NCBI GenBank assembly: GCA_003221695.1
Contig: QHSX01000058.1
Location: 326 to 64,325, forward strand
Origin: Candidatus Rokuibacteriota bacterium
Lineage (GTDB): Bacteria > Methylomirabilota > Methylomirabilia > Rokubacteriales > CSP1-6
Direction of reading: 5' to 3'
Length of the DNA: 64,000 nt
Shown: positions 3,091 to 20,899 of the stretch, in pieces
How positions within the stretch are numbered: position 1 is the stretch's first letter
Layout of the letters: each line of letters begins with the position of its first letter
Notes under the pieces: generated by a model
What the model was told of the DNA's origin: nothing
The model's database searches: none
What the model saw: the letters and a program-made list of their open reading frames with translations, nothing else
Program-made: the position numbers and the translations under genes

Positions 3091-3100
3091 CGCGCAGCGG

Positions 3101-3172
3101 TGGGCCCACCTGGACTCGAACCAAGATCTAACCGGTTATGAGCCGGCTGCTCTGCCATTGAGCTATGGGCCC
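3101..3172 (-). tRNA. tRNA with anticodon CAT (elongator Met, or tRNA-Ile2 read as lysidine-CAU)
   Basis: Cloverleaf GGGCCCA/TGGGCCC acceptor, GCTC..GAGC D-arm, GCCGG-CTCATAA-CCGGT anticodon arm, GGTTCGAGTCC T-loop. C4:G69 and C5:G68 in the acceptor stem, and its position right after rpoD (as E. coli ileX), favour Ile2. It is not an initiator (no 3 G-C pairs in the anticodon stem). Confidence 0.85.
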
Positions 3173-5042: not shown

Positions 5043-6909
5043 GCGTCTCTGCTCCTTCGGACCCTGGAGTCCTCGGTTCGAGCGACTGAGCGACACCCCC
5101 GGTGATCTCGTAAACCACCGCGGTCTCCTGGTGGAGCATGCGAAGCTCTTCGTGCAGCGGCGGCGCCGCCGCGCCGGTCTTGGCCTGGACGTCGGCGATG
5201 GACTGGCTCACCTCACGCGCGCGCCGGAGCCGCTGGCTGCGCTCGAGGCGTCTCCTGAACTGTTCAATGCTAACCCGAACGTCAACCTCCGCGCGCTCTT
5301 CGACGAGGAGGGCGGCCAGGACCCCCCGTGCCTCGTCGGTGGCGAGGTCGGTCATCAGGCTCTCCGCCGGGACGGAGGGCCGCAGACGGAGGGCCGCGAC
5401 GATCGTCCGGAAGGGAGCGTGGGCGAGGTCCTCGGCCTCCACGATCATGGGCAGGAGCACCTCTCGGGCCTCGGTCGAGTTGAGCAGGAGTACCACCAGG
5501 TCGCGCTCCACGGACGGAGGCGTCGTGGCCGGCGTCGACGGGTGCGTCGTGACGGGGCGGCGCAGCGCCGTCTGCAGGCGCTGGGCCTCAATCCAGAGCT
5601 GCGTGGCGTCCACGCCGAGCTTCTGGGCGGCCTCGCGCGAGAGCTGCGCCGCCTCCTGGGCGTCGCCGACCTTCGCCAGCATCAGCGCCGCGCGGGCGAA
5701 CGCGCTGGTCCGCGCGCGCGGACCCGTGGCGCCCTCCGGGTCGGCGATCGCGCGGTCGAGGGCGTAGGAGAGGAGGCTCCGCGCCGCCCCGATCCGCTCC
5801 TCGAAGGCGGCGGCGCCGCTCGTTCGTAGAAAGGTGTCGGGGTCGTGGCCCGCCGGCAGGAGCGCGACGCGCAGCCGCAGCGCCCCCGAGGACTCGAGGG
5901 CGCCGGTGCGGTTGACGGCCCACGCCATGCTCGAGCCCGTGGGCTCGAGCAGCTCCTCGGCGCGCTCCGCCGCCCGGCTCCCGGCCGCGTCGGCGTCGAA
6001 GAACAGGATCGCGTCGTCGCAGTAGCGCTTGAGGAGGCCGAGCTGCGCCGGGGTGAAGGCCGTGCCCAGCGCCGCGACCGTCTCGGTGAAGCCGTGCTGG
6101 TGGGCCATGAGGCAGTCCACGTAGCCTTCGACCAGCAACGCGCGGTTCTTCGCCTGGATCGCAGGGCGTGCGAGGTCGGCGGCGTAGAGCAGGTTGCCCT
6201 TGACGTAGAGCGACGTCTCGGGCGAGTTGAGGTACTTGGGTTGCTCGTCGCCGAAGGCGCGACCGCCGAACGCGACGACGCGGCCCTGGAGATCGCGGAT
6301 CGCGAAAAGGAGGCGCCCCCGGAAGCGATCGTAGACACTCGCCCGACCCTCGCGCGGGATCGCGAGCCCCGCGGCGACGAGCGCGTCGTCCGTGACTTTC
6401 TCGGACCGCATGAAGCTCTGGAGCCCTTCCCATCCCTCGGGTGCCAGCCCCAAGCCGAAGCGGCGCGCCACCTCCGGATCGATCCCGCGCTGGGCCAGGT
6501 ACTGCCGTGCCTGCTCGCCCTCGGGCTTCCAGAGCTTGTCCACGTAGAAGCGCCAGGCGAGCTCCATCGTGCGCAGGAGCTCCTCGCGGCCACGCTCGCC
6601 CGCAGAGCCGCGCTCCTCGGGGAGCGCCACGCCCGCCTGCTTGGCGAGAGCGCGCACGGCCTCGGGAAACGAGAGCTTGTCCTGGCGCATCAGGAAGCCG
6701 AAGGCGTCGCCGCCGACGCCGCAGCCGAAGCAGTGGAAGATCCCCTTCTTCGGATTGACCATGAACGAGGGGGTCTTCTCCATGTGGAAGGGGCAGAGGC
6801 CCTTCCAGTTCTGGCCGGCCTTGCGCAGATTCACGAACCGGCTGACGAGGTCGACGACATCGACCGCCGTGCGGATCTCGTCGAGCACCGCCTGCGAATA
6901 CGACGCCAT
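5035..6909 (-). CDS. dnaG: DNA primase DnaG
   Basis: CHC2 zinc finger [36 protein letters not shown] and a TOPRIM region. Classic position upstream of rpoD. Confidence 0.95.
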
Positions 6910-13141: not shown

Positions 13142-13216
13142 GTGGTTGGGGCGGGAGGATTCGAACCTCCGAATACGGGATCCAAAGTCCCGCGCCTTGC
13201 CACTTGGCCACGCCCC
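13142..13216 (-). tRNA. tRNA-Gln (anticodon TTG), with CCA encoded
   Basis: TGGGGCG acceptor with U1:A72 (a Gln hallmark), CGGGA-CTTTGGA-TCCCG anticodon arm, GGAGGTTCGAATCCTCC T-arm. Sits between ispE and prs. Confidence 0.9.
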
Positions 13217-13231
13217 ATCGTTCGCTTCTCC

Positions 13232-17175: not shown

Positions 17176-18735
17176 GTGGCGTCGGTCATGGCGAAACCTC
17201 GGCGCGGGGACAGCTTGGAGCTCGTCATCGACGACCTCGCGTTCGGTGGCGAAGGCGTCGGACGCGTGAACGGCTACGTCGTGTTCGTGCGCGGCGCCGT
17301 GCCCGGCGACCGCGTCCGCGCCAAGCTAGTGGACGCGCGTTCGCGGTTCGGCCGCGCCGTCATCGAGTCGATCGCGACGCCGTCGCCCGACCGGGTCGAG
17401 CCGCCCTGCCCGTACTTCGGACGCTGCGGCGGATGTCGGCTTCAACACCTCGCCTATCCCGCGCAACTCGCCTTCAAGGAGAAGCAGGTGCGCGACTGCC
17501 TCGAGCGGATCGGCGGTCTCGGCGCGTTCGAGCTCCGACCGATCCTGCCGGCCCCCGAGCCGTACGGGTACCGCAACAAGATGGAGTTCACGATTACTCG
17601 CCCGTCTCAGGCCACCCACGGTGGTGGCGGGCTCGCGGACCCCGCGCGCCTCACTCAGGCCACCCACGGTGGTGGCGGGCTCGCGGACCCCCCGCGCCTC
17701 ACTCAGGCCACCCACGGTGGTGGCGGGCTCGCGGACCCCCCGAGCCTCACTCAGGCCACCCACGGTGGTGGCGGGCTCGCGGACCCCGCTCCAACAGTCG
17801 TCGGCCTGCACCAGGCCGACCGCTACGACGTCGTCCTCGACATCGAGCGGTGCCTGCTGCAGTCGGAGACGATGAACGCGCTGCTCGACCTTTTCCGGCG
17901 CGAGATCCGGGCGCGCGGGCTTTCCGTCTACGACGTCGCCGCCAGCGCGGGGCTCCTCCGCTTCGTGTCGCTGCGCGAGGGCCATCACACGGGCGAGGCG
18001 ATGGTGAACATCGTGGCGACGACTCCCGATGTAGAGACGCTCACGCCCCTGGCCGAGGGGCTCGCGCGCCGCGTACCCGCGACGGCGAGCGTCGTCCTGA
18101 ACGTGAACGCCAAGAAGGCGAGCGTGGCGGTCGGGACGGAGGAGCACCTGCTCCTCGGGCGGGATCACATCCGGGCGTCGCTCGGTGGGCTCAGCTTCCA
18201 GGTGTCGGCCAACTCGTTCTTCCAGACCAACGCGGCTCAGGCCGAGCGGCTCTTCGCCGTCGTCGAGGACGCGTGCAGCCTGTCGGGGACCGAAACCGTG
18301 CTGGATCTCTACGCCGGCACGGGTGTGATCAGCCTCCTGCTCGCGCGCCGCTGCCGGTGGGTCTACGGGATCGAGGTGGCGGCGGCGGCGATCGCCGACG
18401 CGGTGCGGAACGCGCGGACGAACGGGATCGAGAACTGCACCTTCCTGGCGGGGGAGGTGCGTCACGTGCTCCCGACGCTGATGCGCGACGGCGTTCGGGC
18501 GGAGGTCGTCGTCGCCGACCCGCCACGCGCGGGGTTCCATCCGAAGGCCCTCCACGCCCTCGTCGCGCTCGGGCCGGGCCGGCTCGTCTACGTCTCCTGC
18601 AACCCGGCGACGCTCGCCCGCGACCTCCGGGCTCTCGTCGGTGAGGGCTATCGGCTCGAGTGGGTGCAGCCGGTGGACATGTTCCCGCAGACGCCGCATA
18701 TCGAGGCGGTGGCCCGTCTCCGACGGGCTCCATGA
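17176..18735 (+). CDS. rlmD: 23S rRNA (uracil-5)-methyltransferase RlmD/RumA, with a 16-aa x4 tandem-repeat insertion
   Basis: N-terminal TRAM domain, 4Fe-4S Cys cluster CPYFGRCGGCRLQH, and a C-terminal SAM-MTase (DLYAGTGVISL, VVADPPRAGF). The THGGGGLADP repeat lies between the domains. Confidence 0.85.
   Translation: MASVMAKPRRGDSLELVIDDLAFGGEGVGRVNGYVVFVRGAVPGDRVRAKLVDARSRFGRAVIESIATPSPDRVEPPCPYFGRCGGCRLQHLAYPAQLAFKEKQVRDCLERIGGLGAFELRPILPAPEPYGYRNKMEFTITRPSQATHGGGGLADPARLTQATHGGGGLADPPRLTQATHGGGGLADPPSLTQATHGGGGLADPAPTVVGLHQADRYDVVLDIERCLLQSETMNALLDLFRREIRARGLSVYDVAASAGLLRFVSLREGHHTGEAMVNIVATTPDVETLTPLAEGLARRVPATASVVLNVNAKKASVAVGTEEHLLLGRDHIRASLGGLSFQVSANSFFQTNAAQAERLFAVVEDACSLSGTETVLDLYAGTGVISLLLARRCRWVYGIEVAAAAIADAVRNARTNGIENCTFLAGEVRHVLPTLMRDGVRAEVVVADPPRAGFHPKALHALVALGPGRLVYVSCNPATLARDLRALVGEGYRLEWVQPVDMFPQTPHIEAVARLRRAP
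17605..17790 (+). repeat. Tandem direct repeat, 48-nt period, about 3.8 copies, in-frame inside rlmD
   Basis: The CAGGCCACCCACGGTGGTGGCGGGCTCGCGGACCCC(C)GCGCCTCACT unit recurs at about 17608, 17656, 17704 and 17752. Confidence 0.85.
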
Positions 18736-19649
18736 CGACGTACGTCACCCGCCGACTCCTACAGTCGCTGCTCGTCCTCTTCGGCGTCTCGTTCGTCGTC
18801 TTTTTCATCCTCCACCTCACCGGTGACCCGGCGCTGGTCCTGCTGCCGCCGGACGCGTCGGCCGAGGACGTGCAGCGCTTCCGCGAGGCGATGGGGTTCA
18901 ACGATCCGTTCGTCGTCCAGTACGGGCGCTTCCTCTCGGGCGCGCTGCGCGGCGACTTCGGCCTGTCGGTCCGCCACGGCGAGTCCGCGTTCACCCTCGT
19001 CGTCGAGCGGATGCCGGCCACGTTCGAGCTGGCGGGCGCCGCCCTGGTGGTCGCGCTGGTCCTCGCGGTCCCCGCCGGCATCGTCTCGGCGGTCCGGCGG
19101 AACACGCTGCTCGACTACGTCTCCACGGTCGTCGCGCTGCTCGGCCAGTCGATGCCGACCTTCTGGTTGGGGATCATGCTCATCCTCGTCTTCTCGGTGC
19201 AGTTCAACCTGCTGCCCTCGTCCGGGCGCGGTGGGTTCGAGCATCTCATCCTGCCCGCGATCACGCTCGGCCTCTTCACGACCGCGCGCATCACGCGGCT
19301 CACGCGATCAGGGATGCTCGACGTGCTGAGCCAGGATTACATCCGGACGGCGCGGGCCAAGGGCGTGGGGGGGCCACCGGTCGTCTGGAAGCACGCCCTC
19401 AAGAACGCGGCGATCCCGATTGTAACGATCGTCGGCATCGAGCTCGGGACGCTGCTCGGCGGCTCGGTGATCACCGAGACGATCTTCGCGTGGCCGGGCG
19501 TTGGACGCCTGTCAGTGCAGGCGATCTATAACCGCGATTACCCCGTGGTCCAGGCAGCGGTATTCCTGCTCTCGAGCACCTTTGTGCTCGTGAATCTCGC
19601 GGTGGACGTGCTGTACACGTACCTCGACCCCCGGATCCGTCTGCGATGA
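18732..19649 (+). CDS. ABC transporter permease, DppB/OppB type
   Basis: MTTYVTRRLLQSLLVLFGVSFVVFFILHLTGDP..., EAA-like loop. The start overlaps the rlmD stop. Confidence 0.85.
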   Translation: MTTYVTRRLLQSLLVLFGVSFVVFFILHLTGDPALVLLPPDASAEDVQRFREAMGFNDPFVVQYGRFLSGALRGDFGLSVRHGESAFTLVVERMPATFELAGAALVVALVLAVPAGIVSAVRRNTLLDYVSTVVALLGQSMPTFWLGIMLILVFSVQFNLLPSSGRGGFEHLILPAITLGLFTTARITRLTRSGMLDVLSQDYIRTARAKGVGGPPVVWKHALKNAAIPIVTIVGIELGTLLGGSVITETIFAWPGVGRLSVQAIYNRDYPVVQAAVFLLSSTFVLVNLAVDVLYTYLDPRIRLR

Positions 19650-19689
19650 CGCCTCCGCGTCCGCGATCCCCGGTGGGATGAACAGCGGC

Positions 19690-19985
19690 GGAAGGGACGG
19701 AGCCGGGGCGCGCCTGGGGCAGGCCACCCACGGAGTCTTCCGATCTCGGGCCCGGACGTGATGGGGGGAAGGGGAGGGAGCCGGGGCGCGCCTGGGGCAG
19801 GTCACCCACGGAGTCTTCCGATCTCGGGCCCGGACGTGATGGGGGGAAGGGGAGGGAGCCGGGGCGCGCCTGGGGCAGGCCACCCACGGAGTCTTCCGAT
19901 CTCGGGCCCGGACGTGATGGGGGGAAGGAGAGGGAGCCGGGGCGCGCCTGGGGCAGGCCACCCACGGAGTCTTCCGATCTCAGGG
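19690..19985 (+). repeat. Tandem direct repeat, 78-nt period, about 3.7 copies, between two permease genes
   Basis: The AGCCGGGGCGCGCCTGGGGCAGGCCACCCACGGAGTCTTCCGATCTCGGGCCCGGACGTGATGGGGGGAAGGGGAGGG unit starts at about 19701, 19779, 19857 and 19935. It carries four G-runs per unit. Confidence 0.85.
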
Positions 19986-19996
19986 CGCCCGCTACA

Positions 19997-20899
19997 ATGA
20001 CCGCCACGACGATCACGATCCCCGCCGAGGGGGTCGCCGCGCGAAGCGAGTGGCTGACGCTACTCCGCCGACTCGCGCGCCGACGGACGGCGCTGTTCGG
20101 TCTCGTCGTTGTCGCGCTCGTGTTCGTCGCTGCGGCCGGGGCTCCGTGGTGGAGCCCCTGGGACCCGATCGAGCAGGACATCACCAACCGCCTGAAGCCG
20201 CCCGGGTCACCGGACCCGTCGGGCCGCATGCACGTGCTCGGCACCGACCACCTCGGGCGCGACCTTCTGGCGCGCGTGATCTTCGGTGCGCGCCCCGCAC
20301 TGCTGGTCGGCGTCGCGGCGGTGGCGATCTCGGGGATCATCGGGATGATCGTCGGGCTCGTCTCCGGCTACTTCGGGGGCCGCACCGACGACGTCTTTAT
20401 GCGGCTCGCGGACATCCAGCTCGCGTTTCCGTTCATCCTGCTGGCGATCGCCGTGATCGGTGTCCTGGGGCCGAGCCTGCCCGTCATCATCATCGTCATC
20501 GGGGTCTCGAGCTGGGTCGTCTACGCGCGCGTCGTGCGCGGCGCGGTGCTGTCGCTGCGCGAGCGGGAGTTCGTGCAGGCGGCACAGGCCCTGGGCAGCC
20601 GCGACGGCCGGATCCTCGTGCGCCACATCCTGCCGAACGCGTTCACGCCGTGGCTCGTCGTCGCCACGCTCGACATGGCGCGCGTCATCGTGATCGAATC
20701 GGCGCTCTCGTTCCTCGGGCTCGGGGTGCAGCCGCCGACGCCCACCTGGGGCGGAATGCTCGCGGACGGGCGCGTCTACATCTCGACGGCGTGGTGGCTC
20801 GCGACCTTCCCCGGGCTTGCCATTCTCGTGACGGTGCTCGGGATCAACCTGTTCGGCGATGGACTGCGCGACACGCTCGACCCGCGCCTGAAAGTCTGA
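19997..20899 (+). CDS. ABC transporter permease, DppC/OppC type
   Basis: N-terminal OppC_N-like segment plus 6 TM helices. Pairs with the 18732 permease. Confidence 0.85.
   Translation: MTATTITIPAEGVAARSEWLTLLRRLARRRTALFGLVVVALVFVAAAGAPWWSPWDPIEQDITNRLKPPGSPDPSGRMHVLGTDHLGRDLLARVIFGARPALLVGVAAVAISGIIGMIVGLVSGYFGGRTDDVFMRLADIQLAFPFILLAIAVIGVLGPSLPVIIIVIGVSSWVVYARVVRGAVLSLREREFVQAAQALGSRDGRILVRHILPNAFTPWLVVATLDMARVIVIESALSFLGLGVQPPTPTWGGMLADGRVYISTAWWLATFPGLAILVTVLGINLFGDGLRDTLDPRLKV

Follow-up and report, generated by a model that had tools for sequence, protein, structure and literature searches.

Mycobacterial interspersed repetitive units (MIRUs) insert at start codons and carry an internal open reading frame (ORF) coupled with a −4 spacing, according to the summary of Supply et al. 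1997 given in PMC12548453, and their filled sites have tetranucleotide direct repeats on either side (PMC3184786). Here we analyse a 64-kb stretch of DNA from a Candidatus Rokuibacteriota bacterium (contig QHSX01000058.1; the whole stretch is called the window), in which a tandem array of 78-nt units lies between a dppB-like and a dppC-like permease gene. This array is one site of a dispersed short-repeat family that, in our scan, is limited to Rokubacteria/Methylomirabilota. We consider it probable that the family is a MIRU-like, translationally transparent element set in ATGA stop/start overlaps.

The resemblance to MIRUs extends over many features. MIRU units measure 40–100 bp and occupy tens of sites per genome, as do the Rokubacteria units of 48–87 nt; both lie between operon genes in the orientation of those genes, and in both the ends of an internal ORF overlap the stop and start codons of the neighbours with −4 (ATGA) spacing. 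The same tetranucleotide flanks filled sites and occurs singly at empty ones, head-to-tail copies appear to vary in number, and shorter classes lack an internal segment. The families differ in host (Mycobacterium versus the Rokubacteria/Methylomirabilota phylum), and the Rokubacteria family is also found in frame within genes (rlmD), between tRNA genes and in antisense orientation, and has a near-invariant core of 14–16 nt. By this comparison the Rokubacteria family matches MIRUs closely in architecture; common descent is unlikely and is not claimed. Searches on Rokubacteria repeats and on the core sequence found no description of the repeat family in the searchable literature, and it apparently is undescribed so far.

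A second relevant precedent is provided by upstream ORFs that act through termination and reinitiation (the “bicistronic design”), wherein the place of a Shine-Dalgarno site is taken by a short ORF whose terminal ATGA lies on the following start codon. The putative relay ORFs described below share this arrangement, but they reside on a repeated and apparently mobile sequence, and several of them are chained.

Two arrays are present in the window. Tandem Repeats Finder places the dppB-dppC array at 19690–19986 (period 78, 3.8 copies, 97% matches, score 557) and a second array, inside the rlmD-like gene, at 17606–17787 (period 48, 3.8 copies, 98%). A first reading of this DNA, made from the sequence only, had the 78-nt array filling the entire gap between the permease genes. 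The period and the 347-nt length of the gap (19650–19996) stand, but its first 40 nt lie outside the array as delimited by the program and contain the 5′ extension of the first unit. The units are contiguous and 95–100% identical along their full length, in agreement with the earlier statement that this is not a CRISPR. The 14-mer CAGGCCACCCACGG, searched with up to two mismatches, occurs eight times in the window against 1.14 expected, a number reached in no shuffle. All eight matches fall within the two arrays, with a C-to-T variant at 19798, and GCGCCT-N4-CAGGCCACCCACGG is common to both in the same register, confirming the shared core that had been noticed at the outset. Matches to the family profile in a search with nhmmer cover 17599–17799 in rlmD, and no further diverged copies were found in the window beyond the two arrays.

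To take a census of the family, one genome per bacterial species was scanned with the pattern GCGCCTNNNNCAGGYCACCCACGG. This yielded at least 116 stretches, and all counts derived from the scan are lower bounds. When the downstream tail CTCGCGGACCCCGCTACAA was required with no more than five errors, at least 107 arrays among the matches listed were retained (74 single, 22 double, 10 triple and 1 quadruple), spread over 20 assemblies that all belong to Rokubacteria/Methylomirabilota. At least 29 arrays occur in the metagenome-assembled genome (MAG) AR19 alone. The canonical tail is absent from all 22 loci of other taxa among the matches listed, which are bare chance matches to the pattern, and the pattern had no match in the viral contigs scanned.

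These data support the assignment of both window arrays to a single repeat family with tens of sites per genome. The sequence-only reading had proposed such a family, together with a genome search for its size, and the family is far larger than was guessed. The converse view, that the arrays are two unrelated tandem duplications sharing a 14-mer by chance, would agree with the limitation of the motif to two arrays within 64 kb. However, the same core, spacing and tail recur in at least 107 arrays at unrelated loci of 20 assemblies, and the last unit of each window array closes with the canonical family tail (nhmmer; GGACCCCGCTCCAAC in rlmD). The scan of bacterial species genomes refutes purely local slippage products, whose probability we take to be negligible. 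Uniqueness to this locus, which does not apply to the family, may nevertheless hold for the G-rich 78-nt variant of the unit.

When 138 distinct units are aligned, the consensus reads ATGA-GCGACGCGCGCCTGTCTCAGGCCACCCACGG-(about 8 variable nt)-CCGGCCTCGCGGACCCCGCTACAA-ATGA, which can also be written as (A)TGAGCGACGCGCGCCTGTCTCAGGCCACCCACGG, a variable stretch of about 8 nt, CCGGCCTCGCGGACCCCGCTACAA(A)TGA. Across these units, which come from 20 assemblies, identity is at least 90% in the core and in parts of the tail. From ATGA to ATGA the consensus unit measures 65 nt, and a long form with a 5′ extension of the type ATGAACAATCGGTCTAGGGGAACGGAGCC measures 86 nt. The first unit of the dppB-dppC array (GGGATGAACAGCGGCGGAAGGGACGGAGCC) belongs to this long type, and its extension matches those of other long-form members, for example at loci L027, L028 and L043. 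The 48-nt unit of rlmD corresponds to the consensus minus about 17 nt that include the stop and start codons (GCTACAAATGAGCGACG). In MAG AR19 a second repeated sequence, GATCATAGGCTCGCCTCGGACGGCGGGGCC..., is found directly 3′ of a truncated family tail at three unrelated loci (L037 1087–1116(−), L057 1910–1939(−) and L067 7388–7417(−)); it may be another dispersed element, or the end of an insertion sequence that targets family units.

Two comparisons between filled and empty sites show insertion into an ATGA stop/start overlap. At the hyuA-hyuB junction the empty state is a 4-nt overlap, seen in L132 (...ggcgc ATGA ggggtg...), L133 (GTGA) and L135 (ATGA), whereas the filled site of L036 in MAG AR19 reads ...ggcgt ATGA + 61 nt + ATGA gccgcc... 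and is exactly 65 nt longer. At the dppB-dppC junction L130 has a perfect ATGA overlap (cgATGAgcgtc), and gaps of 4, 13 and 19 nt are present in L125, L129 and L131, respectively. Filled dppB-dppC sites are flanked by ATGA and hold four units of 78-nt period in the window lineage, one long-form unit in L123, and two units that differ in their 5′ part in L127, the most distant RlmD lineage compared at this junction.

The filled state thus occurs in the clade of the window and in a distant clade, with empty sites between them, which suggests that the dppB-dppC junction was hit twice, by independent insertions in separate lineages; the alternative would be repeated precise loss. Insertion may be guided by microhomology, instead of or besides a target-site duplication. 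Specifically, the empty site in rlmD (L125 and L130, versus L129 and L123) already reads GACGCGGGCGCGCC, a sequence similar to the element 5′ end GACGCGCGCC, and the genes 3′ of many units open with ATGAGC or ATGACC, as does the unit.

Between dppB and dppC a long-form copy inserted and was later amplified in tandem by steps of 78 nt (26 codons). A derivative without the stop/start segment (48 nt, 16 codons) sits in frame in rlmD, where it too was amplified. In the mechanism that we favor, each unit would offer a small ORF that runs from an ATG on the upstream stop codon to a TGA on the next ATG. Ribosomes finishing dppB would re-initiate successively via ORF1, ORF2 and ORF3 and so reach the start of dppC, for which no Shine-Dalgarno-like motif is present in the 20 nt upstream of the ATG. 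Changes in copy number, by slippage or unequal recombination, would leave this chain intact because 78 is a multiple of 3.

Several aspects of unit design are consistent with such a relay. Of the 133 distinct units, 76 are bounded by xTGA on either side, and 61 of these 76 form a closed ORF, with an end-to-end distance of 65 nt in 41 cases and 86 nt in 17; both distances are of the form 3n+2. Ten of the remaining 15 double-xTGA units have a distance of 66, which keeps successive ATGs in frame. Counted by array, tandem periods are 3n (51, 63, 66, 84, 87) in 22 instances, 3n+2 (65, 86) in 13 and 3n+1 (64, 85) in two. The occurrence of no more than 2 of 37 arrays at 3n+1 corresponds to a binomial p of ∼6e-5 if arrays are independent, and their independence is only partial. 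Both window periods, 78 and 48, are 3n.

In the window the chain from dppB through ORF1, ORF2 and ORF3 to dppC is unbroken and comprises four xTGA overlaps. An ATGA overlap likewise joins the stop of rlmD to the start of dppB (18732–18735), and therefore the entire rlmD-dppB-dppC string is linked stop to start. The same chain is present in assemblies with three units and with two, where ORF3 is shorter by 26 codons per unit, and in L123 and L127 one ORF each bridges the dppB-dppC gap. An example of a predicted array-ORF peptide is MNSGGRDGAGARLGQATHGVFRSRART.

These observations change how the ORFs of the array are viewed. It had been said that every frame stays open and that the ORFs are spurious. 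Plus-strand frames 0 and 2 are open through the dppB-dppC array, but frame 1 carries a TGA in each unit; the ORFs, which connect dppB with dppC through overlapping stop and start codons and follow a family-wide design, are probably not spurious. Two simpler coding roles were considered and rejected. An N-terminal extension of dppC through the array would need a start codon, and no ATG, GTG or TTG is found in the dppC frame upstream of 19997 within the array. A conserved functional mini-peptide fails because the frame in which the core is read changes between the long and the short form (GHPR versus QATHG). As far as the aligned units indicate, the conserved property is ORF closure and not a peptide.

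The position of the units relative to genes was assessed for 92 arrays, for which open frames rich in G+C at third codon positions were taken as the coding frames of the flanks. Element and downstream gene have the same orientation in 67 arrays, and both neighbors are co-oriented in 39. At the end of the tail, 61 of the 92 arrays carry ATGA or GTGA. An ATG or GTG in frame with the downstream gene is located there in 50 arrays, as ATGA in 46 of them, and an element is typically bounded by ATGA on both ends. The family tail itself is devoid of a Shine-Dalgarno motif. Where no start codon follows the tail immediately, an ordinary Shine-Dalgarno sequence does, such as GAGGAGG in L003, GAAGGAGG in L009 and AAGGAGA in L065. 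Taken together, the ATGA ends, the filled and empty sites and the family-wide length classes are the grounds on which the case for a relay rests, and the relay ORFs probably pass ribosomes to the next gene.

A number of observations weigh against this interpretation. The ATGA on either side may be a duplicated target site or simply unit sequence, and the length classes go back in part to master copies rather than to independent events. When the gaps were shuffled with their ends fixed, a complete chain arose in 14% of cases for the window, 3.6% for L123 and 57% for L127. The rarity of stop codons at 75% G+C makes chance chains this frequent, and a chain at a single locus is therefore weak evidence. 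The one-unit assembly L120 breaks the chain, as it holds a single hybrid unit (5888–6000). Approximately one-quarter of the arrays lie away from gene starts. For example, units in L026 (380–700) occupy the spacers between the genes of a Thr-Gly-Tyr-Thr tRNA cluster; they lie on the strand opposite to the tRNAs and abut their 3′ ends, a setting to which a translational relay cannot apply. At orthologous sites in L046 (∼2817(+)) and L076 (5684–5830(+)), units lie antisense inside an open frame with high third-position G+C, one unit in one MAG and three in the other; this may be a second in-frame intragenic insertion, in the opposite orientation. Furthermore, copy numbers all derive from short-read assemblies, and L119 has a run of N inside the array (5718–5879). 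Finally, the near-invariant core of 14–16 nt is not accounted for by the relay idea.

This core could instead be recognized by a trans-acting protein or RNA. Such a factor would bind CTCAGGCCACCCACGG (with the tail CCGGCCTCGCGG-CCCCG-TACAA) and control many gene starts, a proposal that is compatible with the MIRU-like reading, in which case the relay ORFs would be secondary. Among the 138 copies the columns of the core are invariant or show at least 90% identity, whichever of the three codon positions they occupy, and the majority of copies are at gene starts. Moreover, at orthologous filled sites the core is kept between species while the rest of the unit diverges beyond the flanking genes (L001/L091, L002/L032, and window versus L123). 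However, no candidate factor was found, nothing in Rfam matched at or close to the threshold of a family, the constancy of the core could reflect recent spread of master copies or gene conversion among copies, and the copies in rlmD and in tRNA spacers lack obvious regulatory logic. On balance, we regard control by such a factor as rather unlikely. A related and somewhat stronger possibility, which we put forward only tentatively, is that the family is an independent second invention of the MIRU strategy, being actively mobile, aimed specifically at ATGA stop/start overlaps and kept harmless by a coupling ORF of its own, with the core serving as the handle of a trans-acting factor (a mobilizing enzyme or a regulator of many genes).

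Repetitive extragenic palindromic (REP) sequences and bacterial interspersed mosaic elements (BIMEs) of enterobacteria and pseudomonads offer another comparison, as they too are short, rich in G+C, extragenic and present in many copies, often in operons including transporter operons. A REP/BIME-type element would be a structured palindrome that stabilizes mRNA, terminates transcription or binds protein, and would be spread by a REP-associated tyrosine transposase (RAYT). The tens of dispersed extragenic copies and their high G+C content fit this description, and the reverse strand starts with TTGTAGCGGGG, recalling the GTAG head of REPs. A short hairpin proposed by hand (AGGCC/GGCCT + CGGN/NCCG) is also paired in 88% of copies, and one of its pairs covaries with compensatory types (UG 66, CG 21, AU 11).

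Beyond that pair, however, both sides of a helix pair differ from the commonest pair in no more than 1 of the 138 copies. RNAalifold finds no consensus structure for the 138 units (−0.97 kcal/mol, no covarying pairs). Of 100 shuffles of the dppB-dppC gap, 95 fold better than the gap itself (z = +1.58), and the folding z scores of single units, between −1.7 and +0.9, are not better than those of shuffles. No sigma-70 promoter or intrinsic terminator was detected in the array, and no Rfam family matched either window array at gathering thresholds. Unlike REPs, the element lacks a stable palindrome, and its position and orientation follow the downstream start codon. Tandem copies run head to tail at spacings of 48–87 nt in same-strand searches. 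Inverted doublets, for which no systematic search was made, and RAYT genes, for which no whole genome was searched, were not noted. A REP/BIME-type origin is therefore very unlikely in our estimation.

The earlier suggestion of a REP-like element or MITE (short for miniature inverted-repeat transposable element) likewise finds no backing in structure, there being no conserved hairpin and no folding better than that of shuffles. Terminal inverted repeats of the kind found in MITEs were not seen in the consensus when its ends were compared by eye; the flanking ATGA may represent a duplicated stretch of 4 bp or may belong to the unit itself.

The G-runs of the internal 78-nt units had suggested a G-quadruplex (G4) structure. 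This G-rich stretch is a diverged long-form 5′ extension. Four G-runs had been assigned to each unit; units 2 and 3 indeed carry the full motif GGGGGG-AA-GGGG-A-GGG-AGCC-GGGG, the canonical form being four runs of at least three G with loops of 1–7, but unit 4 has a weakened, looser version and the first unit has none. G4 motifs are depleted in the window (13 on both strands versus 29 ± 4.7 in composition-matched shuffles), and three of the eight plus-strand motifs are within the dppB-dppC array. When the G4 model of ViennaRNA is used, the minimum-energy folds of units 2 and 3 include a quadruplex, and the gain amounts to ∼3.4 kcal/mol for each unit and to 8 kcal/mol over the gap as a whole.

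A G4 in RNA or in the non-template DNA might throttle transcription or translation of dppC in a manner tuned by copy number, and the three motifs that stand out in one gap of a G4-depleted window, like the quadruplexes in the predicted folds, are in its favor. Yet the predicted energy gain is small, the conserved core and tail lie outside the G-runs, and the G-runs occur neither in the first unit nor in the family consensus, nor do the orthologous elements of L123 and L127 contain them. Because they are absent from consensus and orthologues, a G4 neither defines nor explains the element. It would be no more than a side effect specific to this lineage, and a G4 regulator appears quite unlikely.

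The comparison of copy numbers proposed at the outset reveals differences both between assemblies and between species. In seven assemblies with identical DppC (the window plus six contigs) the dppB-dppC gap measures 113, 191, 269 or 347 nt, corresponding to one to four units, and unit-specific single-nucleotide polymorphisms in the array differ among samples. Identical DppC is encoded on contigs of several soil metagenomes and in GCA_003220365.1, and NCBI assigns the identical RlmD to Candidatus Rokuibacteriota. Among RlmD orthologues, proteins of 452–457 amino acids, found in most Rokubacteria, contain no unit; those of 467–477 amino acids contain one, down to 77% identity; those of 483–503 contain two or three; and four and five units are present in proteins of 519 (window) and 523 amino acids, respectively. 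The single-unit state of rlmD amounts to a net gain of 36 nt at the DNA level. Other orthologous sites differ between species pairs by one versus three units. Since all assemblies are from short reads, which give unreliable copy numbers at this locus, copy differences within species may be due to repeat collapse, and differences between species are safe. Two metagenome scans, for the junction of G-rich units and for the last unit joined to the dppC start, gave no matches, in a collection evidently without this species, and so do not bear on copy number.

The unit in rlmD recalls the Rickettsia palindromic elements (RPEs) and other repeats fused in frame into genes described in PMC3184786 in that it is read in frame as an extra peptide in a housekeeping enzyme and has been tolerated for long, since a single unit is retained in orthologues with identities as low as 77%. 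It differs in that RPEs are palindromic and 105–146 bp long, whereas the rlmD unit is non-palindromic, measures 48 nt and occurs in tandem (zero to five units). The insert encodes THGGGG four times and recalls the PHGGGWGQ octarepeat region of prion proteins, and the only Rfam hits for either window array at E ≤ 1 are two matches of this DNA to the prion pseudoknot (RF00523), both below the gathering score (27–28 bits versus 39); these resemblances are probably due to chance. A His-Gly-rich loop within an Fe-S methyltransferase is nevertheless curious.

Table 1. Genes, repeat units and putative relay ORFs of the rlmD-dppB-dppC region in the window.
Feature	Position	Strand	Details
rlmD-like gene	17176–18735	+	Pfam TRAM and tRNA_U5-meth_tr; NCBI name RlmD for identical protein P0001
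rlmD intragenic array	17594–17805	+	Four 48-nt (16-codon) units, in frame as (L)TQATHGGGGLADPxR
dppB-like permease gene	18732–19649	+	Pfam BPD_transp_1 and its N-terminal domain; 305 aa as called in public assemblies
dppB stop TGA	19647–19649	+	Gene calls
Relay ORF1, 11 aa	19646–19681	+	ATG on dppB stop (ATGA); TGA on next ATG (ATGA 19678–19681)
Unit 1, 80 nt, long form	19678–19757	+	5′ extension ATGAACAGCGGCGGAAGGGACGGAGCC; core 19720–19733
Relay ORF2, 27 aa	19678–19761	+	Chain analysis
Unit 2, 78 nt	19758–19835	+	Core variant CAGGTCACCCACGG at 19798–19811; canonical G4 motif 19763–19786
Unit 2 start GTGA	19758–19761	+	GTG start of relay ORF3 on TGA of ORF2
Relay ORF3, 80 aa	19758–20000	+	In frame across units 2–4; TGA 19998–20000 on dppC ATG 19997 (ATGA)
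Unit 3, 78 nt	19836–19913	+	Core 19876–19889; canonical G4 motif 19841–19864
Unit 4, 83 nt	19914–19996	+	Canonical family tail ...GCGCCCGCTACA; core 19954–19967; weakened G-run motif 19919–19953
Unit 4 profile match	19933–20002	+	nhmmer, E = 3.7e-13
dppC-like permease gene	19997–20899	+	Pfam OppC_N and BPD_transp_1; N-terminus aligned with relatives

The string of rlmD, dppB and dppC is conserved in every Rokubacteria lineage examined (window 17176–20899, L117–L131). No gene for a substrate-binding protein or ATPase adjoins it; the neighbors are DciA, a TPR protein, VanZ and an Hrq1-type helicase. Ordinary RNAs unrelated to the repeats are also encoded in the window, namely RNase P RNA class A at 1495–1861(−), with 309.6 bits, tRNA-Met (CAT) at 3099–3172(−) and tRNA-Gln (TTG) at 13143–13217(−).

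Arrays of this kind are a hazard for assembly and gene calling, as they collapse or leave gaps in short-read data, and relay ORFs and inserts alter protein lengths (RlmD, 452–523 amino acids). Their copy number also offers a marker by which strains of an abundant, uncultured soil phylum can be typed, and they provide a natural test case for chained translational coupling. How MIRUs move and are tolerated is still unsettled, and the present family supplies more than 100 diverged copies to compare. An unrelated second family of like architecture in a different phylum would make insertion into ATGA overlaps together with a relay ORF a general strategy rather than a mycobacterial quirk.

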